From the NCBI GenBank assembly GCA_039801885.1, contig JBDRVN010000005.1:1-48032 (forward strand): a stretch of DNA of 48,032 nt, in the 5' to 3' direction. Below, piece by piece: positions 6,313-40,847 of this stretch. Below the pieces are notes generated by a model. The model had not been told where the DNA came from, did no database searches, and saw only the letters and a program-made list of their open reading frames with translations. The translations under genes and the position numbers were made by a program. This stretch comes from a candidate division WOR-3 bacterium. GTDB lineage: Bacteria; Hydrothermota; Tepidihabitantia; Tepidihabitantales; DTDR01. How positions within the stretch are numbered: the stretch's first letter is position 1; the number at the start of each line of letters is the position of its first letter.

Positions 6313-9269
6313 TGGAAGATAAAAAATTTTCACCGGTACCACAGATTCCAGATTTTGTAAAAATTGAACATAAAATCCTAAAATTTTGGCAAGAAAATAA
6401 TTTTTTAAAAAAGTTAATGGAGAAAAATAAAGGGAAAAAGAAATTTTCTTTCCTTGATGGTCCAATTACTGCTAACAATCCAATGGGTGTTCATCACGCT
6501 TGGGGAAGAACTTATAAGGATGTTATTCAAAGATATAAGGCACAAAAAGGTTTTGATCAAAGATTTCAAAATGGATTTGATTGCCAAGGACTTTGGGTGG
6601 AAGTAGAAGTAGAAAAAGAACTTGGTTTTAAATCAAAGAAAGATATTGAAAAATTTGGAATTGATAAATTTGTTGAAAAGTGTAAAGAAAGAGTTTTGAA
6701 ATACTCTCAGATTCAAACTCAACAGTCAATTAGACTTGGCCAATGGATGGATTGGGAAAATTCCTATTATACTATGTCTGATGAAAATAATTATACTATT
6801 TGGTATTTTTTAAAAAAGTGTCACGAGCACGGTTGGATATATAAAGGCGAAGATGTTGTGCCTTGGTGTCCGAGATGCGGTACAGCAATTTCCCAACACG
6901 AAATTGTTACCGAAGGTTATAAAGAATTGACCCATCCTGGTGTTTATTTACAATTTCCTATTAAAGGAAAAGAAAAACATTATCTTTTAGTTTGGACGAC
7001 AACACCCTGGACATTAACCGCTAATGTTGCCTGTGCAGTCCATCCGGAACTTATATATGTTTTGATAAAACATAATGAGAAATTTTATTATCTCTTAAAA
7101 GATAGATTAAATGTTATTGAAGGAAGATACGAGATAATAAAAGAAATTTTTGGGAAAGAGATATTAAATTGGGAATACGAAGGTCCGCTCAGTTTTTTGC
7201 CGATACAAAAAGAAATTAAACATATCGTAATTCCTTGGGAAGGAGTTAGTGCCGAAGAGGGCACAGGCATTGTTCATATTGCTCCCGGTTGCGGCCATGA
7301 AGATTTTATTTTGGGGAAAGAATTTTCTTTAAAGGCTATTTGTCCAATAGATGAAGAAGGAAATTTTTTAGATAATTATGATGGTTTATCTAAGAAAAAT
7401 ATTAAAGAAAGCGAAGAAATTATTTTTGAGTTGCTAAAAAAAGAAGATAAACTATATAAAATTGAAAAATATACCCATCGATATCCAGTTTGTTGGCGAT
7501 GTGGTGTTGAATTGGTTTTTCGTTTAGTACCGGAATGGTATATTTCGATGAAAGAATTGAGATACAAGATAATGGAAGTAGCTAAACAAGTTCAATGGAT
7601 ACCCTCTTTTGGTTTAGAGAGAGAATTAGATTGGTTAAGAAATATGGAAGACTGGTTGATTTCTAAAAAAAGATATTGGGGATTAGCTTTACCAATTTAT
7701 GAATGTGAATGTGGTTATTTTGATGTAATTGGTGGTAAAGAAGAACTTAAAGAAAAAGCAGTAGAAGGATATGAGAAGTTTGAAAGTCGTTCTCCCCATC
7801 GTCCTTGGATTGATTATGTAAAAATTAAATGTCAAAAATGTGGAAATAAAGTCGGTCGTATTCCGGATGTCGGTAACCCTTGGTTAGATGCGGGAATAGT
7901 CCCTTTTTCTACTTTACATTATTTAAAAGATAAAAAATATTGGGAAGAGTGGTATCCTTTTGATTTTGCAGTTGAATGTTTCCCTGGTCAATTTCGCAAT
8001 TGGTTCTATGCCATTTTAGCAATGGCAACGGTGTTAGAATATTCTCCTCCGGTAAAAACAATTTTCGGTTATGCCTTAGTGAAGGATGAAAAAGGAGAAG
8101 ATATGCACAAAAGCAAGGGAAATGTTATTTGGTTTGATGAAGCGGCAGAAAAGATGGGCACCGATATAATGCGCTGGATTTTTGTTTCCCATAATCCTTT
8201 TGAAAATCTTCACTTTGGCTATAAACTTGGTCAGGAGGTAAAAAGAAAATTATTAACTCTTTGGAATTGTTATTCTTTTTTTATTACCTATGCTCGTATT
8301 GATAACTTTGATCCAAAAAGAAAGGAATGTCAAGTTGATTTTAAAAATCTAAAAAATCCTTTAGATAGGTGGTTGCTTTCGATCACTAATAATCTTATTA
8401 AAAATGTTGATGCTGCTTACAATAATTATGAATTTGATGAAGTGCCAAAATTGATTGAGAAATATGTTGATGATCTTTCTAACTGGTATATTCGTCGTTC
8501 CCGAAGAAGATTTTGGAAATCTCAAATTGATTATGATAAATGGTCGGCCTACAATACTTTATATTATGCCTTAACAACATTAGTCAAAATGGTTGCTCCA
8601 ATAATGCCTTTTTTGGCTGAAGAAATTTATCAAAACTTGGTGGTAAAAGTTGATGAAAATGTTGAAAAAAGTGTTCATCTTAATGATTTTCCTCAAATCC
8701 AAGAAGAGTTAATTGATGAGGATATTGAAGAAAAAATGAAATTGTGCCGGAAATTGATTTTTTTAGGAAGAGCTGCCCGGGAAAAAGCAAAAGTGAAAAT
8801 CCGGCAGTCATTAAAAAAGATAATCTTTTTAAATATTCCTGACAAAGAAAAATTAAATGATTTGGTGTCTTTGATAATGGACGAATTAAATATTAAAGAG
8901 GTTATTTTTAATGAAGAAAAATATATTAGCAAAAATTTTGTGAAAGTTGAAGAAGATAATTTGGCTGCTATTTTAGATATTAGTTTAGATGAGGATTTAT
9001 TATGGGAAGGATTTTTAAGAGAATTTATTCATCGGATTCAAATTTTAAGAAAAGATGCGGGGTTTGATATCACTGACCGAATTATTTTGGGGTATCAAGC
9101 AGATAAAAAAATTGAAGATATTTTAAATAAAAATATTGAATATATCAAAAATGAAATTTTAGCTGAGGAAATTAGAAAAGGAATTTTAGAAATCAAAGAC
9201 ATCGAAAAGAAAATGGAAATAAATAATTACGAAATTTTAGTCAGTTTAAAGAGGAAGGTTCATGGATAA
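6312..9269 (+). CDS. ileS: Isoleucine--tRNA ligase, type 2
   Basis: DGPITANNPMGVHHAWGR, WTTTPWTL editing motif, GTGIVHIAPG, DMHKSKGN, LSNWYIRRSRRRFW; C-terminal IQILRKDAGFDITDRI typical of IleRS2, no C-terminal Zn finger. Confidence 0.95.
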   Translation: MEDKKFSPVPQIPDFVKIEHKILKFWQENNFLKKLMEKNKGKKKFSFLDGPITANNPMGVHHAWGRTYKDVIQRYKAQKGFDQRFQNGFDCQGLWVEVEVEKELGFKSKKDIEKFGIDKFVEKCKERVLKYSQIQTQQSIRLGQWMDWENSYYTMSDENNYTIWYFLKKCHEHGWIYKGEDVVPWCPRCGTAISQHEIVTEGYKELTHPGVYLQFPIKGKEKHYLLVWTTTPWTLTANVACAVHPELIYVLIKHNEKFYYLLKDRLNVIEGRYEIIKEIFGKEILNWEYEGPLSFLPIQKEIKHIVIPWEGVSAEEGTGIVHIAPGCGHEDFILGKEFSLKAICPIDEEGNFLDNYDGLSKKNIKESEEIIFELLKKEDKLYKIEKYTHRYPVCWRCGVELVFRLVPEWYISMKELRYKIMEVAKQVQWIPSFGLERELDWLRNMEDWLISKKRYWGLALPIYECECGYFDVIGGKEELKEKAVEGYEKFESRSPHRPWIDYVKIKCQKCGNKVGRIPDVGNPWLDAGIVPFSTLHYLKDKKYWEEWYPFDFAVECFPGQFRNWFYAILAMATVLEYSPPVKTIFGYALVKDEKGEDMHKSKGNVIWFDEAAEKMGTDIMRWIFVSHNPFENLHFGYKLGQEVKRKLLTLWNCYSFFITYARIDNFDPKRKECQVDFKNLKNPLDRWLLSITNNLIKNVDAAYNNYEFDEVPKLIEKYVDDLSNWYIRRSRRRFWKSQIDYDKWSAYNTLYYALTTLVKMVAPIMPFLAEEIYQNLVVKVDENVEKSVHLNDFPQIQEELIDEDIEEKMKLCRKLIFLGRAAREKAKVKIRQSLKKIIFLNIPDKEKLNDLVSLIMDELNIKEVIFNEEKYISKNFVKVEEDNLAAILDISLDEDLLWEGFLREFIHRIQILRKDAGFDITDRIILGYQADKKIEDILNKNIEYIKNEILAEEIRKGILEIKDIEKKMEINNYEILVSLKRKVHG

Positions 9270-9639
9270 AAAAAAGTTAAAGAAACTTCAAGAGTTGTTA
9301 ATAAAAGAGAAAGAAAAATTGTTAAAAGGAAAAGTTCACATTGAGGAAATTCTAAAAAAAAGCCCCAAAGAAGCGACGGGAGAACTTTCTACTTATCGGA
9401 CGCATATTGCTGATTTAGGAAGTGATACTTATCAGAAAGAGATAGCTGCTTATTTAACAACTCAGGAAACACAAATATTAATGAAAATTGATAAAGCTTT
9501 AAGAAAGATAGAAGAAGGTACTTATGGTAAATGTGAGAGATGTAATAAAGAAATTGAGATACCAAGATTAGAGGCGATACCTTATGCTGAATTTTGTATT
9601 AATTGTCAAAAAGAATTAGAAAAACGTCAAAAAAGATAA
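9262..9639 (+). CDS. dksA: DksA/TraR C4 zinc-finger protein
   Basis: HIADLGSD coiled-coil tip; GTYGKCERC...RLEAIPYAEFCINC. Confidence 0.88.
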   Translation: MDKKKLKKLQELLIKEKEKLLKGKVHIEEILKKSPKEATGELSTYRTHIADLGSDTYQKEIAAYLTTQETQILMKIDKALRKIEEGTYGKCERCNKEIEIPRLEAIPYAEFCINCQKELEKRQKR

Positions 9640-30776: not shown

Positions 30777-31325
30777 ATGAAAAGAGAAGAAGCTTTAAAA
30801 TTAATCGATAATTTTATCAAAAACGAAAATTTAAAGAAACATTCGTTAGCAGTAGAAGCGTGTATGCGAAGATTAGCAAAGTATTTTAATGAGGATGAAG
30901 AAAAATGGGGATTATGTGGATTGCTTCATGATTTGGATTATGAAGAAACTAATAGGAATCCAGAAAATCACGGGATTAGAACAGTAGAAATTTTAAAAGA
31001 GAGAAATTTTAACGATGAAGAAGTCTTAAACGGAATTCTTGCCCATTGTGAAAAGAAAAATCCCGAAAATAAATTAGAAAAAGCAATTTATGCAATTGAT
31101 CCATTAACCGGTCTTATCATTGCTGCTTGTTTGATGCATCCTGATAAAAAATTAAGAAGTTTAGATGTTAATTTTGTTTTGAGACGTTTTAAAGAGAAAA
31201 AATTTGCTGCCGGAGCTAATCGGGAACAGATAAAAAAATGTGAAGAGATTGGTTTAAATTTAGAAAGATTTATTGAATTTTGTCTTTCAGCAATGCAAGA
31301 AATAGCCGAAATCCTTGGTTTATGA
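30777..31325 (+). CDS. HD-domain (HDIG-type) phosphohydrolase
   Basis: [36 protein letters not shown]. Confidence 0.88.
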
Positions 31326-32188
31326 AGAAAAAAAGTTTTCAAGATATTATATTGACTTTACAATATTTTTGGAGCAAAAAAGGCTGTTTAATTTATTCTC
31401 CTTATAATTCTGAGGTGGGAGCAGGTACCTTTAATCCAGCAACTTTTTTTAAAGTTTTAGACGAAAAGCCTTGGCGAGTTTGTTATACGGAACCTTCTAA
31501 AAGACCAAGAGATGGTAGATATTGCAAAAATCCCTTAAGAGTGCAACAATATTGGCAACTCCAAATTATTTTAAAACCAGCGCCCAAGAATATTCAAGAA
31601 CTTTATCTAAAAAGTTTAGAGGCGATAGGTATTAATTTAAAAAACAACGATATTAAATTTATCGAAGATGACTGGGAATCGCCAACGTTGGGTGCCTGGG
31701 GTGTGGGATGGCAAGTGGAACTTAATGGTATTGAAATAACTCAGTTTACTTATTTTCAACAAATGGGAGGATTAGATTTAAAAGTTATACCAGTAGAGAT
31801 TACTTATGGGTTAGAAAGAATAGCAATGTTTTTGCAAAAAGTTTTTTCAATCTTTCAAATTGAATGGAATAGAAATCATACTTGGGGTGATATATATTTT
31901 CAAAATGAAGAAGAATTTTCTTTTTTCAATTTTGAAGAAGTCCTTCCAGAAGAATATTTAAAATTATTCAATTTTTATGAGAAAGAGGCAAAAAGACTAT
32001 TAGAAAAAGGTTTAGTTTACCCGGGATATGATTATGTAATCAAATGTTCTCATACTTTTAATCTTTTAGAAGCCCGAGGAGTTATTAGTGTTTCTGAAAG
32101 AACAAATTATATAAAAAGAATAAGAGATTTAGCAAAATTAGCAGCCATAAAATACTTAGCAAAAAATAACACCTCTGGAACTTCCTAA
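31322..32188 (+). CDS. glyQ: Glycine--tRNA ligase alpha subunit
   Basis: [40 protein letters not shown]; start moved to ATG 31322. Confidence 0.97.
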
Positions 32189-32242
32189 CTTTTTCTTTAT
32201 CTAAGTTTTTAAATATCAAAAGGTTATCTTAATCTTTCATTA

Positions 32243-32270
32243 TTGACATTTTTAAAATTAATAATAAAAT
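32243..32270 (+). promoter_or_regulatory. Promoter of the putative exopolysaccharide operon
   Basis: TTGACA-16-TAAAAT, then GAGGA SD before ATG 32295. Confidence 0.65.
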
Positions 32271-32294
32271 CTTATTTGTATTGAGGACTGGGCT

Positions 32295-33317
32295 ATGGAA
32301 AGAGATTTAATAAAAAGTGGAATAGAAGAAGTTGATAATATTTGGGGCGGATTTAATTTTGGCTACGGTTATTTATTAATTTCGGAGAACGAAGAGACAA
32401 ATAGAGAAATTCTGTTAAAATATGTTAATAAGATTTTAAATAAGGACCAACAAATTTTATATTTTGTCTGTTTAAAAACTGAAGATTTTTTACAAAAGGC
32501 AAAAGAAATTATTCCGGATATTGATGAGTATGTGAAAAGAAATTTATTTTTTATTCATTTTATCAATTCCGAATTTTTAAAAACAAGAGAGGATAAAAAA
32601 ATAATTTTCGCCTTAACTTCTTTGAAAAAGATTTTGATTAAAGAAAAAGCCAATCAAATAATTATTGATAATTTCAGTTATTTTCTTAATTTTGAAAATT
32701 TAGAAAAATTTTACAAAGAAATTTTTGAATTCTTTATGATATTAAGAGAATACTCTTATATTGGGTTTTTTTCTTTAACTAAGAATTTTGTAGAAGAAAA
32801 TAACCAAATTTTCTCCTTCCTGAAAGAAATTTCGGCAGGGTTAATTTTCTACGAAGAAAATAAGTGCCGTTTATTTTCACGGTTTTCTCATCAAGAAGGA
32901 ATTTTTAAAAAAGAGGAATTTTTTATTCCGGAATTTCCCCAAAATTTAACGGATCAAGATGGCTATACCGGACTCTACAATTATCAAGGATTTAAACAGA
33001 TTTTAGATAATTTAATTGAGAAAAAAGTTGGCTTCTCTCTTTTTGGTTATCAAATTTTGACCGATCTAGCTGACCATTTAAAAAGAATTTTTCTTCACCG
33101 AATAACCAAGATTTTGAAAGAAAAAGGAATAAAGGTTCCAGCGATGCGTTATCAAGATAGGATTTATTTATTGTTTTTAAATAATCGAGAGAAAATAGAA
33201 GACTGTAAAAGAATTATTAACGAAGAAGAAGTTGCTGGCGGAATAAAAATTGTTAATTTTATATATCATTATCCGGTAGACTTTCAAACCGGCGAAGAAT
33301 TGGAGAAAATTTTATGA
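32295..33317 (+). CDS. Degenerate RecA/KaiC(RAD55)-fold domain fused to a degenerate GGDEF-like domain
   Basis: IKSGIEEVDNIWGGF (cf. I.TGI..LD..LGGG) and IIIDNFS (Walker B-like) without a GxxGxGKT P-loop; DGYTGLYNYQGF (cf. D.LTGL.NRR.F); RYQDRIY in place of RYGGDEF. Confidence 0.6.
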   Translation: MERDLIKSGIEEVDNIWGGFNFGYGYLLISENEETNREILLKYVNKILNKDQQILYFVCLKTEDFLQKAKEIIPDIDEYVKRNLFFIHFINSEFLKTREDKKIIFALTSLKKILIKEKANQIIIDNFSYFLNFENLEKFYKEIFEFFMILREYSYIGFFSLTKNFVEENNQIFSFLKEISAGLIFYEENKCRLFSRFSHQEGIFKKEEFFIPEFPQNLTDQDGYTGLYNYQGFKQILDNLIEKKVGFSLFGYQILTDLADHLKRIFLHRITKILKEKGIKVPAMRYQDRIYLLFLNNREKIEDCKRIINEEEVAGGIKIVNFIYHYPVDFQTGEELEKIL

Positions 33318-34876
33318 AGACTTTTTTAATTATTTTAATACTTTTTTCTTACAATGAATTAGAAAAGGCAAAAGAATTATACGAAAAGGGGATATATTTA
33401 GAGGCAATTTATTATTTAAATAAATACCTTAAAAAAAATCCATTAGATAAAGAAGCCGGAGATTTAAAAAGAAAAATTCTTTTAGGATTGAATTTAGCAG
33501 ATTCGACAGAAAAAATGGATAATTCTTATAATATTTCTAAACCACAAAAGAGAATTAAAAAGATTGAAAAAAGAGAATCTCAATATTCAAAAATATTGTT
33601 AAATGCCCGAAAAGCAAAAGAAGAGGGCGATTATTTTAAAAGTCTTTATTTTTATGAAAACTTTTTAAAAAAGGATACGAATGATAAAAAAATTTTTTAT
33701 GAAGTTGCCCAAATAAATAATTGGTTAGGATTTTTCAATAAGGCAATTTTTTATTACAATAAGTATTTAAATTACTTTCCGCAAGATAAAAGAGCTCGCT
33801 ATGAATTGGCCCTGGTTTATAGTTGGAATGGTAATTATGAAAAAGCATTAGGTATTTTAGATGAATTAGAAAAAGAGACAGCCGATATTAGAATTGATTT
33901 AGCCAAAGCGAGAATTTATAAATGGCAAAACGATTATTCGAATTCTTATCGGATTTATCAACAATTAAAAAATTTGTATCCGGAAAACGAAGATATTTTA
34001 AAAGAATATGAAGAAGTAAAAAGCAAAATGGAAGAAAAAGGGAAAAAGGAAGAAAAATCTGAATTTTTATATTCTTTTTCACCAATATTTTCTTATCAAC
34101 AAACAGCGGAAGAATGGCAGAGGATTTTATTGGGCTCGTATTTTCAGTTTAATTGGAATAAATTATCCTCTACTATTCTCTATGAATGGCAACAATGCCA
34201 AGAGGACGATAGTTTGCGAATAATAAATAAAATTGGTTTAAAAAACAAAATCAATTTTTTAGAAAATCTCTATCTTAATTTTAATATTTATTATTTAGCG
34301 ATAAAAAGAAGCGATGATTTAATTCTTTATGGTATTGGGGTCAATTATCAAAATCCGAAGTTGCTATTAAGTTTAGAATATAATAAAAAACCGATTTGGG
34401 AAGAGGTTTATAAAATAAATACTTGTTATCGTTTATTAACAGCCGATGCTATTTGGGGAGGGATATATTATCAACCTTTCAAATTTTTAGGTTTTGACGG
34501 AAGTTATCAGTACAATCTTTATAGTGATAAAAATGAAGCGAATAATTTAAATTTTAAACTACATTTTTTACCCTTTAATAATTTAAAATTTGGTTATCAT
34601 TATTATTTTCTAAATTATCTTATGGAAAAAGAGGAATATTGGTCACCAAAATTTTACGAAGTCCATTCAGCATTTTTAAATATTTGGGCAGAAAATTTTG
34701 AAATATTTTTTGAATTGGGGAAACCTATTGATTTTTCTTTTTTAGAAAAAAATCTCTCAATCGCTTTTAGAATAAAATTAGTTAAAAATTTCTTTTTACT
34801 ACTGAACGGCAAATACGGCGAAACTTATTATTACAAAATTGGTGAAGGAACTATCGGTTTTGAATATTTATGGTAA
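33314..34876 (+). CDS. TPR-repeat protein with probable C-terminal outer-membrane beta-barrel (PgaA/BcsC/PelB-like export scaffold)
   Basis: Short signal peptide; TPR repeats such as ARYELALVYSWNGNYEKA; aromatic alternating C-terminal half with EYWSPK; ends GFEYLW. Confidence 0.7.
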   Translation: MKTFLIILILFSYNELEKAKELYEKGIYLEAIYYLNKYLKKNPLDKEAGDLKRKILLGLNLADSTEKMDNSYNISKPQKRIKKIEKRESQYSKILLNARKAKEEGDYFKSLYFYENFLKKDTNDKKIFYEVAQINNWLGFFNKAIFYYNKYLNYFPQDKRARYELALVYSWNGNYEKALGILDELEKETADIRIDLAKARIYKWQNDYSNSYRIYQQLKNLYPENEDILKEYEEVKSKMEEKGKKEEKSEFLYSFSPIFSYQQTAEEWQRILLGSYFQFNWNKLSSTILYEWQQCQEDDSLRIINKIGLKNKINFLENLYLNFNIYYLAIKRSDDLILYGIGVNYQNPKLLLSLEYNKKPIWEEVYKINTCYRLLTADAIWGGIYYQPFKFLGFDGSYQYNLYSDKNEANNLNFKLHFLPFNNLKFGYHYYFLNYLMEKEEYWSPKFYEVHSAFLNIWAENFEIFFELGKPIDFSFLEKNLSIAFRIKLVKNFFLLLNGKYGETYYYKIGEGTIGFEYLW

Positions 34877-34877
34877 A

Positions 34878-36260
34878 ATGAGAGAGAAGAAGTTTTTTAT
34901 TACTTTAATTTTACTGATAGTTATCACAATCGGTTGTATTTATCTTTTATCCTTTATTAAAGAAAAAATTAATTTAAGTTATGCCCATATTTTTATGCTC
35001 AGTCTCACGGTTCTTTTGCTTTCCTTTTTTATTTTATTACTTTTCCGTTATTTAATAATCCTTATTCTCTCTCTTCTTGCCCATTTCCGCTATAAAAAGG
35101 AATTACTTAAGGAAGAAAACTTAAAAACGGTCTCTATTATTATGCCCGTTTATAATGAGGAAAAGATTTTAGGTGTGGTAATTAATTCTTTATTAAATTT
35201 AAATTATCCAAAAGATAAATATGAGATTATTATTATTGATGATGGTTCAAAAGATAATTCTTATTCAATTGCTTATCAATTTTTGAAAAATGAGCAAGGG
35301 ATAAAATTAAAATTGTTAAGGCAGGAAAATCAAGGAAAGGCTAAGGCATTGAATCGGGGTATTTCGGAAAGTAATGGTGAGATTATCGTTTGTATCGATT
35401 CGGATTGTGTGGTAACCAAGAATTCTTTGATTTATGGAGTAAGACATTTTCAAGATGAAAAGGTGGGAGCGGTTGCCGGCAATGTGAAGATTTGGAATCA
35501 AGATAAATTATTTGTGAAATTGCAGGCGTTAGAATATATGGAAGGTTTGAATTTCACTCGGCAGGCATTAAGCTTTTTAAACAAAGTTAATATTGTGCCC
35601 GGCGCAATTGGCTTTTTCCGTAGAGAAGTTTTAGAGAAAGTTGGTTTATATAATGGAAATATTTACGCGGAAGATTGTGATTTAACATTAAGAATATTAA
35701 AGGCTGGCTATAAAGTTATCTATGAACCCAAGGCGGTTGTTTATACCGAGGCTCCGGAGAGCATTAATTGTCTTTTTAAACAAAGGTATCGGTGGACAAG
35801 GGGTATTTTACAAGCAGCCGGAAAAAATAATCATCTTCTTTATCATTCTAATGCTTCCTTTTCTTTAATTTTGAGTTATCTATTATTAATTTACGAAGCC
35901 TTTTTCTGGCCAGCAATGAATTTAATTGCCCATTTGTTTTTTACACTTTTGGCGCTTCTTTACGGATTTATTCCTTTTCTTTTTATTTGGTGGCTTTCTT
36001 TAACCCTTCTTGATTTTAGTTCAGCTTGTTATGCTTACGTTAGCGATAAGAAAAGCGAAAATAATGCTTACAATAACAAAAAGATTGTTTTTTCCCATTT
36101 ACCTTTTTTGGTTTTAATCTATCGTCTTTTTTATCTTTTATTGATTGATACTATAAAGGTTTTTGCCTTTTTAGAAGAAATTTTAAATTTAGAAATGGGC
36201 TGGCAAAGGATAAAAATTACTGGCAAACTTAATGGATATATAGTAAAGGAGAAGTTATGA
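34878..36260 (+). CDS. Processive GT2 glycosyltransferase, PgaC/IcaA-like polysaccharide synthase
   Basis: DDGSKD, GKAKALN, DSD, AEDCDL and QRYRW (D,D,D,QxxRW) motifs; N- and C-terminal TMs; start moved to ATG 34878. Confidence 0.88.
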   Translation: MREKKFFITLILLIVITIGCIYLLSFIKEKINLSYAHIFMLSLTVLLLSFFILLLFRYLIILILSLLAHFRYKKELLKEENLKTVSIIMPVYNEEKILGVVINSLLNLNYPKDKYEIIIIDDGSKDNSYSIAYQFLKNEQGIKLKLLRQENQGKAKALNRGISESNGEIIVCIDSDCVVTKNSLIYGVRHFQDEKVGAVAGNVKIWNQDKLFVKLQALEYMEGLNFTRQALSFLNKVNIVPGAIGFFRREVLEKVGLYNGNIYAEDCDLTLRILKAGYKVIYEPKAVVYTEAPESINCLFKQRYRWTRGILQAAGKNNHLLYHSNASFSLILSYLLLIYEAFFWPAMNLIAHLFFTLLALLYGFIPFLFIWWLSLTLLDFSSACYAYVSDKKSENNAYNNKKIVFSHLPFLVLIYRLFYLLLIDTIKVFAFLEEILNLEMGWQRIKITGKLNGYIVKEKL

Positions 36261-36460
36261 GAGAAATAATTACCATCCTTTCAGCAATTGTTTTGGGTGT
36301 TACTCTAATTACTTTGATTTTTTCATTAGTGATTTATATTTTATTTCGTTTAAAGATAAATAGAAAAGAAAATTTAAATAATAAAAAGATAAAAACAGAA
36401 AAAGAAATAGAAGAAGAAATTTTTATCCGCTACCAACCGAAAGAGGATGAGAAAAATTAA
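36257..36460 (+). CDS. Small single-pass membrane protein (67 aa)
   Basis: One N-terminal hydrophobic helix and a charged tail; ATGA overlap with the GT2 gene; AAGGAG SD. Confidence 0.75.
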   Translation: MREIITILSAIVLGVTLITLIFSLVIYILFRLKINRKENLNNKKIKTEKEIEEEIFIRYQPKEDEKN

Positions 36461-38135
36461 CCTTTGGTTTCTTCTTTTAATTTTTTTTATTTTTCTTTTA
36501 TTTCTCCTTACGGCTCTTGGGCTTACTCAATTGGTAATAAAAAAACCGGAATTTTATTCAATAGTTAAAGAGGAAGAAGATACTTTACTAACTTCCGATA
36601 CCTTAAAATTATCTTTTCCCAAAGAGGGATATCTGCCTTTAAAAGGTTATGTGCTTACTAATAAAAATTTTATTTTTGATAACGAGATAAAAATTTTAAA
36701 AGAGATATTAAAAGATTTTTCGGAATTTGATTATCAAATAATTGATGAAAAGGTTTTTGAGAGATTATCAGAAGAGAAGGGAATCATTATTTTATTAGAA
36801 AAAACCAAATATGATATCAAGATAAGTGAGAAAGTCAAAGAAAAAGTTTATTCCGGTTGGGGAATTTTGGTAATTAAAAACCCCCAGACAAAAGAAGGTG
36901 TTTCTTTATTAAGTCATATTGGCGGCGTTATTCCAGTAGAAAATAACAAAATAGAATACCAAGAAATATTTCTTAAAGGAGAAACACCATTAACTTTTAA
37001 TATGAAAGTCGGAGATTTTTTAGGAATTGTTGGTGAAAAAAGTTATTATTTAAAGCCAGTGGAAAAGAGAGTAAATGGTTGTGGTTATTATAAATTTGAT
37101 AAAGAAGCAATTGTTTATGGTTTTTATAATAAAGGAAGATATGTTGCTTTAGGTTTTTCTTTAAATAGTTTAACAGGCGATTCTTTTACCCAAAGGAATA
37201 TTAGAATTTTATTTAGAAATATAATAAATTGGTTAACCAAAAGACCAGTAATTCAATTTAAATATTGGCCAAACAATAAAGAGTATGCTTTTATTTTTAC
37301 TTGCGATGTAGAACACCAAGGTGAAAATTGGCATAAAATTAAAGAAATAGTAAATGATGGTACTTTCTTTTTCTTAACATCAGAATTTAAAAGTTTTGAT
37401 AAGAAAGAGATAAAAAATATTGAAATTGCTCTTCACGGACAAGGACACGAACCCTTAAAAAATAAAGATTATGAAAAGCAAGAAAGAATTATTTTAGAGG
37501 GGAAAAATTACTTAGAAAAAAGATTGAAAGAAAAGATTTTTGGTTTCCATCCACCCCTTTTGATGTATGATAATCTCACTTTAGAAATTCTTAAAAAATC
37601 TGATTTTCTTTATCTTCTTATAGAATATAAATTAGGTCTCCCTTTTTTGCCTTATTTTTCCTCAATAATTTCAATTCCTCAAACAATTCCGGATGATTAC
37701 GATTTGATCATAAGAAACGGAATAAAAAACCCAGATACTTTATTCACTTATTTTTTAAATTATATTGAAGAACTAAAAAGGATAAATGGGTTAATTGTTT
37801 TTAGTATTCATACCCATTTATTGGGCAATAGAGATTATCAGCCAGTAATAAAACAAATTATTGACTTGATAAAAAATGATAAAAATTGTTATTTTACCAA
37901 AGCAAAAGACATTGCTCAATGGTGGCAAAAAAGGTCAAAGATAGAAATTGATTTTAAAGAGAATAAAACAGATGAGATAATTATAGCAAACTTTAGCCCT
38001 GAAGATATTGAAGGGATTGTTATAAAGTATTATCCTTCAACTAATGAAATATCAGAGAGAGAGATTACAATTGATATTAAAAAATTGGCTAAAAGAGAAA
38101 AAAGAAAAATATATATTATTTACCAAGATCATTAA
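36447..38135 (+). CDS. Membrane-anchored polysaccharide deacetylase (CE4/NodB-like) with an extra N-terminal domain
   Basis: FTCDVE, ALHGQGH, GFHPP, PDDYD and SIHTH correspond to CE4 motifs 1-5; N-terminal TM anchor. Confidence 0.78.
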   Translation: MRKINLWFLLLIFFIFLLFLLTALGLTQLVIKKPEFYSIVKEEEDTLLTSDTLKLSFPKEGYLPLKGYVLTNKNFIFDNEIKILKEILKDFSEFDYQIIDEKVFERLSEEKGIIILLEKTKYDIKISEKVKEKVYSGWGILVIKNPQTKEGVSLLSHIGGVIPVENNKIEYQEIFLKGETPLTFNMKVGDFLGIVGEKSYYLKPVEKRVNGCGYYKFDKEAIVYGFYNKGRYVALGFSLNSLTGDSFTQRNIRILFRNIINWLTKRPVIQFKYWPNNKEYAFIFTCDVEHQGENWHKIKEIVNDGTFFFLTSEFKSFDKKEIKNIEIALHGQGHEPLKNKDYEKQERIILEGKNYLEKRLKEKIFGFHPPLLMYDNLTLEILKKSDFLYLLIEYKLGLPFLPYFSSIISIPQTIPDDYDLIIRNGIKNPDTLFTYFLNYIEELKRINGLIVFSIHTHLLGNRDYQPVIKQIIDLIKNDKNCYFTKAKDIAQWWQKRSKIEIDFKENKTDEIIIANFSPEDIEGIVIKYYPSTNEISEREITIDIKKLAKREKRKIYIIYQDH

Positions 38136-38169
38136 TAAAAAGATTTAAAATTTAGATAGAAAATTAAAC

Positions 38170-38203
38170 AGATAACTATACTATATCCTATATAGCTCCC
38201 TAT
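38170..38203 (+). repeat. 34-bp dispersed repeat, copy 2
   Basis: AGATAACTATACTATATCCTATATAGCTCCCTAT; 29/34 identical to the reverse complement of 2714-2747. Confidence 0.6.
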
Positions 38204-38278
38204 CTAACTAAATATAAATTATTAATTATAATATATAATAATAAAAAATCAATATTTAAAGCTTCTCTTAAGTTTTTA

Positions 38279-39241
38279 TTAGTTGGGCGATATTTTTTTG
38301 ACTTTTTCTTTAATGCCCAGAATTTTTTGAACGGGAAGATAAGATTTTCTAACAAACCAAGGAAATTCTTTATATTTTTCATACCAGTTCTTTAACCATT
38401 CTATTGTTTCTTTATCGTTCAGATTTCCGCTACCCATTGTTAAGTTTTCAATCTGGTATTCTGGATTGCCTTTAATTTGAGAAAAGAATTTTTCTCTAAA
38501 GAATTTGGCAATAAGAGAAGCAGTTTTCACTTCCAAATATTTTTCGTCAGCATTTTTCTTAATGATTATTTCTGTTCCTCTTTTGGCTAAATCAGTTAAA
38601 AAATTCTTTAAATTTTTGCCTACTCCATAGTCATCAATCGTAATCCTTAAATTCTTTAAATCTTTGTCTTTAATTAATTTCTTTAATATCGTTAAATAAC
38701 CGATATCCATTAAATAATTGATTTTATATTTATCAATCAATTGGGGTGAGATTTTTTTACCAATAAAAGTTAAACCAGCCTCTTTATAAAATAAAATCTT
38801 TTTATAAAACTCCTGCCAATATGAAAGATTATGATTCTTTTTGGTATCAACAGTTGAAATAATTTCTTCTAAAAAGGGAAAAAGATTTTTGGGAATAAAG
38901 AGACCAATTAAAAATAAAGGTCCAAATAGTTCACCTTTGTTTGTTTCGTCCAAACCAATGGCAAATTCTCTCTTTAAAGGAACATATAAAGAACCAGCAA
39001 TTTTGTTTATCTCTTCCCAAGCATTAATAACCTCCGGTGTATCTCTTTTTGTTGGTGTAGAATATAAAGTTTTGGAAGAGTAATAAGTAAAAATTACATC
39101 TTCTAATCTTATCCGCCAGATTTCGTAAGGACTATTTACTTTTTCCTGTTTTCCGCCTTTCTCTAATAAGAGGGATTTTATTTTTTCTGCCTTACTTTTG
39201 TTGACCTGCCATTTTCTACCGGTTAAAATTTCTTTCGCCAT
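38279..39241 (-). CDS. Ribonuclease HII/HIII family protein with N-terminal TBP-like extension
   Basis: IGLDETNKGELFGP, DTKK, ITIDD, ADEKYLEVKTASLIAK; N-terminal domain with FTYYSSKTL. Confidence 0.85.
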   Translation of the reverse strand: MAKEILTGRKWQVNKSKAEKIKSLLLEKGGKQEKVNSPYEIWRIRLEDVIFTYYSSKTLYSTPTKRDTPEVINAWEEINKIAGSLYVPLKREFAIGLDETNKGELFGPLFLIGLFIPKNLFPFLEEIISTVDTKKNHNLSYWQEFYKKILFYKEAGLTFIGKKISPQLIDKYKINYLMDIGYLTILKKLIKDKDLKNLRITIDDYGVGKNLKNFLTDLAKRGTEIIIKKNADEKYLEVKTASLIAKFFREKFFSQIKGNPEYQIENLTMGSGNLNDKETIEWLKNWYEKYKEFPWFVRKSYLPVQKILGIKEKVKKISPN

Positions 39242-40410
39242 TAATAATCATAAATTCTCTTTTCACCTTCAATTTTTTTAATTTCGGTAATATCCTGGGT
39301 AACTTCAATACAGCCTAAGTAATCACCTTCTTTATTCCGAATGGCAAAATAACGAATATGAACGAGCCTTCCTTTATAGAAAATCCAAAATTCAGCAACA
39401 TCTCTTTTCTTATTTTTAAAATCGCTTAAAATTCTTTCAACAATATGGATACTTTTTTGGGGATGGCATTGTTGAACTTTTCTACCCAAAACTGCTTTGG
39501 TGCGTAAGAATATTCTTTCTTTTGACTGGTTGAAGTATCTAACAATATCGTTTTTATCAACAAAAGTAATATCAAAAGGCAGAGTGTTTAAAAGGCTCTC
39601 TAATTCTTCCAAAGAAAAGGCACCAGTTTCAAAATTGATTGGCAAGGTTTCCGAGATTTTTTTGGCTGCCTCTTTTATTTCTTCTCTTTTAGTGCTCTCA
39701 TCGGGTGTAAAACAGCAATAACCGATTTCATTAAATTCTTTCTTTATCTCCTGCCACTCTTCTTGGGTTATTACATTTAAAGAAGTGGGGAAAAGGATTT
39801 TGTTTTCCTTATAAAAATGGGAATTTAACATTTCAAAAAGTTCTTGTGCCTTTTCTTTTAAAAGATTTATATTTTCTTTCTTTTCCCATAATTGATAAAT
39901 CTCTTTCTTAATGCTACGGATTTTATCATGTTCCATCCACATTATTGCTGGTGGTTGGGTAATTCCGTGTTTCTCTAAATAGGGGAAAAGGACATTCTCT
40001 TCTCTTAGATAATGGGATTCAGAATCTTTAAAATGATGAATAATATGTTCCAATCTTTCATCTATTTTATTTTCTAAAAGAATTTGATAAAACTCTCGGG
40101 CATTCTCTAAAAGAAGTTTATGCTCAGTCATTAAAATATAAATCGGGTGTCCAGGTTCGGTTAAAACCTCCTGTTTTACTAATTCCTCTTCCATAAGTGC
40201 CAAATGGAGAGAGCAAAATTTCTGAATTTCTTCTTTACCCATTCCTTCCCTAATCAATTCCTCTTCAATTTCCGCAATTGCCTTTGGTGTTAAACCTTTT
40301 AAAGAATCTTTAAATTCCTCTTTCAATTTTTTAACATCTTCACCTTGATGGATTCTTTTTATTATTTGTTTAATTATTTCTTTTTTATTTTTGCCAAAAA
40401 GCTCACTCAC
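39241..40410 (-). CDS. DUF438 + hemerythrin-like + PAS domain protein
   Basis: IAEIEEELI..G.....IQ.FC.LH; GHP; EH, HY.REE..LFP, EHD, H..KE..ILFP; C-terminal LPFDITFVD...CHP PAS. Confidence 0.88.
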   Translation of the reverse strand: MSELFGKNKKEIIKQIIKRIHQGEDVKKLKEEFKDSLKGLTPKAIAEIEEELIREGMGKEEIQKFCSLHLALMEEELVKQEVLTEPGHPIYILMTEHKLLLENAREFYQILLENKIDERLEHIIHHFKDSESHYLREENVLFPYLEKHGITQPPAIMWMEHDKIRSIKKEIYQLWEKKENINLLKEKAQELFEMLNSHFYKENKILFPTSLNVITQEEWQEIKKEFNEIGYCCFTPDESTKREEIKEAAKKISETLPINFETGAFSLEELESLLNTLPFDITFVDKNDIVRYFNQSKERIFLRTKAVLGRKVQQCHPQKSIHIVERILSDFKNKKRDVAEFWIFYKGRLVHIRYFAIRNKEGDYLGCIEVTQDITEIKKIEGEKRIYDY

Positions 40411-40847
40411 TTTTCCTCCCTTTTGTTCAATTCTTTACATAATTTATCAATATTATCTTTTAATAAATCTCTTATTTTACGATAAAAATTTAAAATTTCC
40501 TCTTCGCTACCTTTAGCTAATTTAGGATTAGGAATTGGCCAAAATAATCTTTCTTTTACCTTTCCGGCAAAATAGGGACAATTTTCCTTGGCATCGTCAC
40601 CGCAAAGGGTAATTACATAATCAAATTCTTGGTTAGAAAATTGATTTACTAATTTACTTTTTTGTTGAGAGATATCAATATTAATCTCTTTCATTATCAA
40701 AATTGCCTTTGGGTCAATTTTGGTTAATCTGCTACCAGCACTTTTTGCTTCACAACAATAAGAATAAAAATTGTTGATAATCGCTTCGGCCATTTGGCTA
40801 CGGCAGGAGTTTTCTTCGCAAAGAAAAAGAATTTTAATTTTTCTCAT
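40407..40847 (-). CDS. arsC: Arsenate reductase, thioredoxin-coupled / LMW-PTPase family
   Basis: CEENSCRSQMAE (CX5R) plus resolving cysteines in ITLCGDDAKENCP. Confidence 0.85.
   Translation of the reverse strand: MRKIKILFLCEENSCRSQMAEAIINNFYSYCCEAKSAGSRLTKIDPKAILIMKEINIDISQQKSKLVNQFSNQEFDYVITLCGDDAKENCPYFAGKVKERLFWPIPNPKLAKGSEEEILNFYRKIRDLLKDNIDKLCKELNKREEK

Follow-up and report, generated by a model that had tools for sequence, protein, structure and literature searches.

The window analysed here is a 48,032-nucleotide chromosomal piece (contig JBDRVN010000005.1 of assembly GCA_039801885.1, positions 1 to 48,032) from a candidate division WOR-3 bacterium, the genome of which comprises 1.56 Mb, is 91% complete and has a G+C content of approximately 29%. 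Five open reading frames (ORFs) on the + strand, designated p1-p2-p3-p4-p5, were identified at positions 32295-38135, and this operon probably encodes a trans-envelope synthase-dependent exopolysaccharide system which forms a distinct family common to WOR-3 and Ignavibacteria. The first gene, p1 (32295..33317, +), is predicted to encode a soluble protein of 340 amino acids (aa) with a KaiC/RecA-like domain and a degenerate GGDEF-like domain. It is followed by p2 (33314..34876, +), encoding a putative exporter of 520 aa with an N-terminal hydrophobic leader, a TPR region and a beta-barrel, and by p3 (34878..36260, +), encoding a membrane glycosyltransferase family 2 (GT2) synthase of 460 aa when read from its ATG. 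The remaining genes are p4 (36257..36460, +), encoding a single-pass membrane protein of 67 aa, and p5 (36447..38135, +), whose product of 562 aa comprises a transmembrane (TM) anchor, a GH42M-like domain, a CE4 (NodB-homology) domain and a beta-rich C-terminal region.

A first-pass annotation, made from the letters of this DNA alone, had described the five genes as tightly coupled, with a single promoter and with a 67-aa single-TM protein in fourth place. The coupling and the small protein were borne out by the ORF coordinates: p1 and p2 overlap by 4 nt, p2 and p3 are separated by 1 nt (with p3 starting at ATG), p3 and p4 overlap by 4 nt, and p4 and p5 by 14 nt. The promoter was borne out in part. 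A promoter-like site (TTGACA-16-TAAAAT; 32243..32270, +) is present 25 nt 5' of the p1 ATG, agrees with the consensus at 11 of 12 positions and is the joint best in the interval 31200-38600, but because AT-rich DNA of this kind contains many consensus matches (47 promoter-like matches found compared to 37.7 +/- 5.1 in shuffles), its function as a promoter is rated as no more than plausible.

Conservation of the five-gene cassette

Nine of the 41 genomes searched in this order carried p1, including all five other genomes of the genus (5/5), both genomes of the family here labelled f3 (2/2) and one of 19 in a further family, f2. The order p1-p2-p3-p4-p5 was found in 6/6 of the WOR-3 relatives' loci examined (G002, G004, G005, G007, G011 and G034), which represent three families of the order.

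Searched exhaustively with HMMER, the p1 family returned 1169 proteins at E <=1e-3, mostly KaiC-only, among which was a distinct set of two-domain relatives of 360-460 aa, with one cluster named Ignavibacterium sp. Species-representative genomes were scanned with an alignment of these two-domain relatives, giving 341 encoding stretches, and the best 79 loci were analysed; all 79 were titled as Ignavibacteria, Ignavibacteriota or 'Bacteroidetes bacterium' metagenome-assembled genomes (MAGs). Cassette genes in these loci were called by phmmer (E <=1e-3) using queries from the window and from f3. The complete order p1-p2-p3-p4-p5 was observed in 62/79 loci (the best 79 of 341). Where at least 7.3 kb of sequence was available downstream of p1 (64 loci), the cassette was complete in 60, lacked p2 in 2 and consisted of p1-p2 only in 2; the remaining 15 loci comprised 2 complete cassettes and 1 without p2, the others ending at a contig edge. 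MAGs labelled Ignavibacterium album (L020, L041) were among the carriers.

The five genes are the only content which these loci share, and the flanking (housekeeping) genes vary by lineage. Since the five genes are shared while their flanks differ, gene content provides strong evidence that they constitute one functional unit, and the five-gene cassette postulated by the first-pass annotation can be regarded as conserved.

Variation on this arrangement was also seen. Some Ignavibacteria loci (L060:7003-8868, L070:2449-7438, L078, L079, L081, L091 and L093) carry additional short KaiC-like ORFs just 5' of p1, or a duplicated p1-p2 pair. A profile of the p1 C-terminal domain was tried as a phylum-wide census of the cassette and was rejected: 83 of 272 genomes gave a match, 8 of them strongly (E <1e-50), the cassette-bearing genome G034 was missed, and the weak matches lay in other frames, mostly of 290-1250 aa. 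With this profile, 75 WOR-3 genomes outside the window's order gave weak matches (E 1e-8 to 1e-4) in frames mostly of 620-700 aa, which presumably represent other GGDEF-like proteins.

Predicted synthase and exporter, and a CE4-like protein

The p3 protein matched PF00535 (E 8e-38) and also PF13632, and carries the motifs DDGS, DSD, AED and QRYRW. Hydrophobic segments were found at residues 19-37, 51-69, 339-357, 366-384 and 416-434, with two on the N-terminal side of the GT domain and three on the C-terminal side; the numbering is that of a 473-aa form which would begin at an in-frame TTG at 34839, the ATG at 34878 being the more likely start. No PilZ match was obtained for p3 in a Pfam scan. 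From its sequence, p3 would thus be an inner-membrane processive GT2 (D, DxD, (T)ED and QxxRW motifs with flanking TM helices) without a PilZ tail, in agreement with the earlier assignment. The top plasmid-borne relative of p3 was an unnamed archaeal GT2, from Halorubrum (187 bits, 37% identity). On plasmid pHLAC01 of Halorubrum lacusprofundi (L111:4442-7152) this GT2 gene overlaps a DUF2334 (CE4-like) gene, and the pairing of a GT2 with a CE4-like protein exists well beyond bacteria. The genome of the window also encodes a second PgaC/IcaA-like GT2 (G000:C21:1513-2547; 120.9 bits, 508-aa frame), with stop-containing GT2 fragments nearby.

The TPR region of p2 (residues 15-247; 33356..34054, +) was recognised by Pfam TPR_19 (E 3.3e-9) and other models and is helical in the predicted structure (mean predicted local distance difference test score, pLDDT, 84.4). 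The same model contains exactly 16 strands at residues 252-519 (34067..34870, +), forming a predicted beta-barrel with the C-terminal sequence ...FEYLW. Foldseek matched the model to E. coli BcsC (9b8a, E 2.3e-15; also 6tzk), to the PgaA barrel (4y25, E 1e-11, TMt 0.69) and to PelBC (9h80_M, E 1.3e-10). Because the genome encodes BamA (485 bits, over the cut-off), an outer membrane is expected in this cell. As far as prediction goes, p2 combines the TPR region and barrel of an outer-membrane exporter, which is the build that had been suggested for it.

The p5 protein has one TM segment, at the N-terminus (residues 8-26), and its N-terminal module resembles a GH42M/GATase-like domain (6t5o, E 2e-4). 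The CE4-like domain (residues ~275-470; 37269..37856, +) contains the motifs TCDVE, HGQGH, FHPPLL, DDYD and HTH. The membrane-anchored CE4 protein of the first-pass annotation was weak when p5 was searched alone (22.6 bits against a cut-off of 23.1 for PF01522) and firm at the level of the family: the f3 ortholog matched PF01522 with E 3.7e-20, and the p5 family profile matched CE4 structures in the PDB (3rxz, E 5.5e-14; also 7y51, 1z7a, PuuE 3cl6 and the peptidoglycan deacetylase 3qbu). When p5 was aligned with NodB and PgaB, the NodB motifs TFDD, HTMTH and RAPYG corresponded to TCDVE, HGQGH and HPPLL, respectively; p5 retains the base Asp and the two His residues, and PP is kept in WOR-3. 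An apparent loss of the CE4 domain in the relative G002 (p5 of 321 aa) was rejected as an artefact, as the ORF enters an assembly N run after the CDV motif (L012 ~9200-9286), which interrupts the gene and makes p5 appear short. In many Ignavibacteria cassettes a second p5-like gene (~540 aa) directly follows p5, e.g. L027:17007-18638, and gave no Pfam CE4 match.

The cassette shares with pgaABCD of E. coli a QxxRW inner-membrane GT2 accompanied by a small membrane protein, a modifier of CE4 type and an exporter with TPR repeats and a 16-strand barrel. It could accordingly be a known system, namely a divergent pgaABCD (specifying poly-N-acetylglucosamine, PNAG) with one extra gene, in which p2 would be PgaA, p5 PgaB, p3 PgaC and p4 PgaD. 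The best curated (NCBIfam) match of p3 is indeed TIGR03937 (PgaC_IcaA, 206-207 bits), E. coli PgaC, the closest relative of p3 that has a name, shares 31% identity with it over 263 residues, p2 touches the PgaA model, its barrel superposes on PgaA 4y25, and a CE4 domain is present. However, p3 missed the TIGR03937 cut-off (207 against 422.3 bits), which among 14 control genomes was exceeded only by E. coli, and p2 scored 28.8 bits, in its TPR part only, against a cut-off of 366.65 for the PgaA equivalog TIGR03939, so that the likeness of p2 to PgaA appears from the models to be at fold level only.

A maximum likelihood tree was constructed from 20 GT2 rows, comprising 14 cassette GT2s, 2 PgaC, 2 NodC, the Halorubrum GT2 and the GT region of BcsA as outgroup; IcaA, HasA, chitin synthases, PssC and NfrB were left out. 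The cassette GT2s formed one clade (89/98) to which the Halorubrum GT2 was sister (89/89), with PgaC outside (88/91) and NodC more distant still; a long branch (1.04) led to the genus of the window. The separate position of the cassette clade also speaks against identity with pga, as does the build of p5. PgaB consists of a CE4 domain fused to a C-terminal glycoside hydrolase and is a lipoprotein, whereas p5 is TM-anchored and comprises GH42M-like, CE4 and beta-rich parts, without a detected GH153-like hydrolase half. The gene order differs from that of pga, p4 has a single TM helix and gave no match to the PgaD model among the Pfam/NCBIfam matches listed, and p1 has no pga counterpart, the first-pass annotation having correctly stated that pga possesses no RecA-fold/GGDEF-like subunit. 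In addition, no diguanylate cyclase for activation of the PgaCD type was found in the 41 genomes of the order, nor was machinery for cyclic diguanylate monophosphate (c-di-GMP) detected in the genome of the window. We consider a divergent pga operon to be improbable, and the genes could not be mapped one-to-one onto pga, bcs or pel. A distinct family within the synthase-dependent class remains the favoured description.

A KaiC-like/GGDEF-like subunit and its putative small membrane partner

The N-terminal domain of p1 (residues 1-197; 32295..32885, +) is predicted to adopt a KaiC/RecA-like fold from which the P-loop has been lost. p1 itself scored just below the cut-off for PF06745 (KaiC; 25.8 against 26.6 bits), and the p1 family profile matched PDB KaiC over residues 3-161 (E 4.7e-22). 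The AlphaFold model (mean pLDDT 83.0, predicted template modelling score 0.55) was matched by Foldseek to KaiC 8fwj (E 4.7e-11) and also to FlaH (4yds) and PH0186 (2zts); when the entire model was searched, only KaiC-type matches were returned. The C-terminal domain (residues 222-340; 32958..33314, +) is short and GGDEF-like, with RYQDRIY at the position of RyGGDEF. It was modelled as alpha-beta-alpha-beta-beta-alpha-beta-alpha with RYQDRIY on a beta-hairpin, and no module of the size of a REC domain lies between the two domains in the model.

A direct scan of p1 C-terminal domains with PF00990 gave a match in 1/7 (E 0.11 only), and the GG(D/E)EF active-site motif was not found in them, being replaced by YQDRI in the window and by YSDKI in f3. 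The DxxTGLxN turn is retained at the start of the domain in WOR-3. The two-domain relative P0018 exceeded the PF00990 cut-off (29.5 against 23.8 bits), and GGDEF families accounted for 25 of the 30 nearest clusters in the ESM Atlas (score 0.94), which is taken as a lead only. Judged by sequence and models, the degenerate RecA/KaiC-GGDEF architecture assigned to p1 in the first-pass annotation is right.

Just one solved chain, 6khu_A, was matched significantly by the C-terminal domain profile in the PDB (E 2.6e-7). This protein of 131 aa, titled 'Diguanylate cyclase/phosphodiesterase-domain containing protein', has GRYSD and YPED motifs in common with the f3 orthologs of p1 but is, unlike p1, a stand-alone short chain; no paper on it was found in the literature searched. 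FlaH and PH0186, KaiC-like proteins of one domain, were among the best structural matches of the N-terminal domain by target coverage (TMt 0.65-0.66) and differ from p1 in having no GGDEF-like domain and in belonging to another machine. In the archaellum, FlaH forms part of a ring beneath the membrane machine, where it binds ATP but hydrolyses it poorly; by analogy, it is a possible model for p1.

The nucleotide-binding motifs of p1 vary by lineage. At the position of GxxxSGKT (Walker A) the window has SENEETN, and the P-loop is absent from 4/4 p1 proteins of the genus (SENEETN or a near variant). Elsewhere in WOR-3 (families f2 and f3) GKT was found in 3/3, and among 82 Ignavibacteria p1 ORFs GKT occurred in 39 and GRT in 41, with 2 gapped. 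The Walker B motif reads FDE in almost all Ignavibacteria, compared to IDN or a variant of it in the genus of the window. This variation indicates that ATP turnover is not essential everywhere, and the RecA-like domain would, on these motifs, be at least partly a scaffold; in the window's genus, where the P-loop is lost, p1 would be limited to the role of a scaffold or a ligand sensor and would have no ATPase function.

The p4 protein has one N-terminal TM helix which is strongly conserved (L8, I11, L13, T16, T19 and Y27 invariant in 14 sequences), followed by a variable linker and a conserved C-terminal [RK]Y-x-[PS] (RYxP) motif. Prediction of a p1-p4 complex gave an ipSAE of 0.49 (runs 0.51, 0.49 and 0.45) compared to 0.00 for the best control, with a partner pLDDT of 76-77 and at least 95% of contacts agreeing between runs. 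In calibration the mark was reached by 58/80 solved complexes and 2/110 mismatches; a score of 0.60 or below was seen for just seven of the 80 solved complexes and for both mismatches that passed.

A comparison can be drawn with BcsE, which consists of degenerate RecA-like N-terminal, REC and GGDEF domains and reaches the membrane together with BcsF, its partner from the same operon (PMC7439463). In E. coli K-12 the annotated bcsF gene spans 192 nt. By analogy, p1 and p4 look like the same idea, with the complex prediction weakly in favour. There is, however, no detectable sequence relation between BcsE and p1, most p1 relatives keep Walker A, and p1 has neither the REC domain nor the I-site RxxD, i.e. 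no REC-GGDEF (GIL) tandem with RxxD that would make it BcsE-like. Homology was considered and rejected: hhalign of the p1 family against a single E. coli BcsE sequence (a weak test) returned a probability of 0.1, and the comparison was kept as an analogy. The synthases also differ, p3 being unlike BcsA and lacking PilZ.

The likeness to BcsE bears on a further explanation, namely that p1 is a receptor for a nucleotide second messenger (c-di-GMP or another) which activates the synthase in the manner of PelD, PssE and BcsE. In Pel, Pss and Bcs, c-di-GMP is indeed bound by degenerate GGDEF domains acting as receptors (PMC7439463 and PMC4125290), and p1 offers a GGDEF-like C-terminal domain with, in WOR-3, the TGLxN turn. 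Against this, in no lineage examined does p1 carry an RxxD five residues before its degenerate motif. PF00990 (GGDEF) matched in 0/41 genomes of the order, this genome included, in a search for which the control was positive in 8/14 reference genomes, and neither EAL nor PilZ was found in this 91%-complete genome. Cassette-bearing Ignavibacteria genomes had a single GGDEF match each (5/5), and the one which was examined is degenerate (GRIDEKIF). These findings speak against c-di-GMP as the p1 ligand and not against other ligands. Overall we regard a second-messenger receptor as unlikely, and the 'Bcs-like regulator' of the first-pass annotation was not supported. On sequence, the activation by a c-di-GMP receptor that is typical of synthase-dependent systems was not recognised here, and regulation of the cassette appears to be independent of c-di-GMP.

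The degenerate match belongs to genome G041 (Ignavibacteriota; L116:675-2534), is the sole PF00990 match of that genome and lies in a 619-aa protein with a hydrophobic N-terminus; its GRIDEKIF is close to GRYSDKI of the f3 p1 and to GRYSDD of 6khu. A single match of this kind was also obtained in each of four other Ignavibacteria genomes, where the frame has a length of ~625 aa.

The cassette was also compared with two further systems in which a degenerate GGDEF subunit occurs. Pel is characterised by a GT4 synthase (PelF), by PelD with TM, GAF and degenerate GGDEF parts and an I-site, and by a requirement for PelC, PelE and PelG. A PelF-type GT4, a PelD of this build, PelC, PelE and PelG are all absent from the cassette, which resembles Pel in its TPR-barrel exporter (the PelBC match), its putative periplasmic CE4-type deacetylase and its degenerate GGDEF subunit (in Pel, PelD; PMC7439463). 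Being Gram-positive, Listeria has no outer-membrane exporter for its Pss polymer. Its pssA-E operon, like the cassette, links a PgaC/IcaA-like GT2 (~30% identity) to a degenerate GGDEF protein and, unlike the cassette, encodes a PssE which binds c-di-GMP via RxxD and a BcsB-like PssD, with no KaiC-like domain described in the accessible text (PMC4125290).

Proposed machine, its polymer and its genomic setting

In the proposed machine, p3 would polymerise a uridine diphosphate (UDP)-sugar, most likely an N-acetylhexosamine (HexNAc) such as N-acetylglucosamine, as an inner-membrane processive GT2 and thread the chain through its own channel, as family knowledge and models suggest. The periplasmic body of p5, anchored in the inner membrane, would handle the nascent chain, and in WOR-3 its CE4 domain would probably remove some of the N-acetyl groups. 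The TPR region of p2 would then take the chain, for export via the 16-strand outer-membrane barrel. At the cytoplasmic face, p4 is envisaged as a small single-pass partner of the synthase whose cytoplasmic tail may tether p1, and p1 as a KaiC-like/GGDEF-like regulator or scaffold.

Several observations weigh against this scheme, in whole or in part. In a metatranscriptome library (X1), three contigs at least 99% alike cover 33543-33732, 35486-35762 and 36248-36435 (655 nt in total, within p2, p3 and p4), which is compatible with transcription, carry-over of DNA being the alternative. The in-silico indication of p1-p4 binding is weak. The cassette yielded no recognisable glycoside hydrolase or lyase, and no glycoside-hydrolase family was detected on p5. 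In the window p5 the second Asp has shifted to a Glu one residue further on (DxE rather than DD), and the Arg of RxPY is replaced by His; the DxE spacing presumably resembles that of the 3qbu and PuuE types. Furthermore, eight aligned Ignavibacteria p5 orthologs have neither DxE nor HxxxH, so that deacetylation by p5 is, on these motifs, probably a WOR-3 feature and not a constant of the family. Finally, p3 lies far below the PgaC/IcaA cut-off (207 compared to 422 bits), and, as stated in PMC4125290, ~30% identity to PNAG synthases was insufficient to predict the composition of the Listeria Pss polymer.

These points give some room to a polymer other than HexNAc (a glucan, a mannan or one based on N-acetylmannosamine), with the CE4-like domain of p5 serving as a binding or scaffold module or as an O-deacetylase. 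The separation of the cassette GT2s from PgaC and NodC, the non-canonical p5 motifs of the window, the loss of metal and base residues from the eight Ignavibacteria orthologs and the Listeria precedent (PMC4125290) would all fit such a polymer. On the other side, the nearest named matches of p3 among plasmid proteins were all HexNAc transferases (PgaC, 133-137 bits; NodC, 105-107 bits; HasA, 91 bits), compared to 75 bits for BcsA, p5 of WOR-3 retains D, HxxxH and PP, and the nearest plasmid-borne GT2, that of Halorubrum, likewise adjoins a CE4-like gene. A non-HexNAc polymer is judged rather unlikely. The closest GT2s with a name all transfer HexNAc, and partners of CE4 type occur repeatedly; on this weak evidence the polymer is probably, though not certainly, HexNAc-based.

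A more specific version of the proposed machine is put forward tentatively, as one possibility. In this, p1 would join a KaiC-like module, which in many members retains the P-loop, to a GGDEF-like domain put to a new use; it would be tethered beneath the synthase by the p4 tail and would gate polymerisation via ATP binding, autophosphorylation or another ligand. Control would thus be free of c-di-GMP in an unnamed family native to WOR-3 and Ignavibacteria, both lineages of the Fibrobacteres-Chlorobi-Bacteroidetes (FCB) group. The genus of the window would represent a derived form, its ATPase having degenerated until, as in BcsE, nothing but a scaffold was left.

The systems for cellulose, PNAG, alginate and Pel were mostly worked out in Proteobacteria and Firmicutes, c-di-GMP being known as the activating signal of each. 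The cassette has the same overall build as these well-studied systems and is conserved in a phylum without cultured members as well as in dozens of species of Ignavibacteria. As no c-di-GMP synthase was found in the WOR-3 genomes searched, it presents a testable case of c-di-GMP-free regulation and may show a role of the GGDEF-like fold in such lineages. Ignavibacteria are common in sludge, sediments and hot springs and include cultured members. The cassette may lead to a matrix polymer made by bacteria that are abundant in the environment and, given its presence in MAGs labelled Ignavibacterium album, may be experimentally approachable. No description of the cassette was found in the literature searched, and the main text of an operon survey (PMC7112194) contains no mention of Ignavibacteria, Bacteroidetes or KaiC, the supplementary tables, which lay outside this check, being a place where such loci might be listed. 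The cassette thus apparently represents a conserved, unnamed operon family with a KaiC-like/GGDEF-like subunit within the synthase-dependent class.

The first-pass annotation had placed the cassette in a probable thermophile. The fraction of IVYWREL residues was high (0.458 over 15 ORFs), and no score over the cut-off was obtained for reverse gyrase in the genome. A growth temperature of ~94 C, which the Zeldovich formula would give for this genome, was rejected as implausible, AT bias probably inflating the figure. A sequencing run (X2) contained almost none of the sampled words, with just two tiny partial pieces, and gives no evidence on habitat or expression.

Upstream of the cassette lie the housekeeping genes for UppS, CdsA, an HD protein and GlyQ, and downstream, in convergent orientation, those for RNase HII, a hemerythrin-PAS protein and a low-molecular-weight phosphatase. 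The gene for the DUF438-hemerythrin-PAS protein (39241-40410, -) overlaps that for the low-molecular-weight phosphotyrosine phosphatase (40407-40847, -), both being convergent with the cassette.

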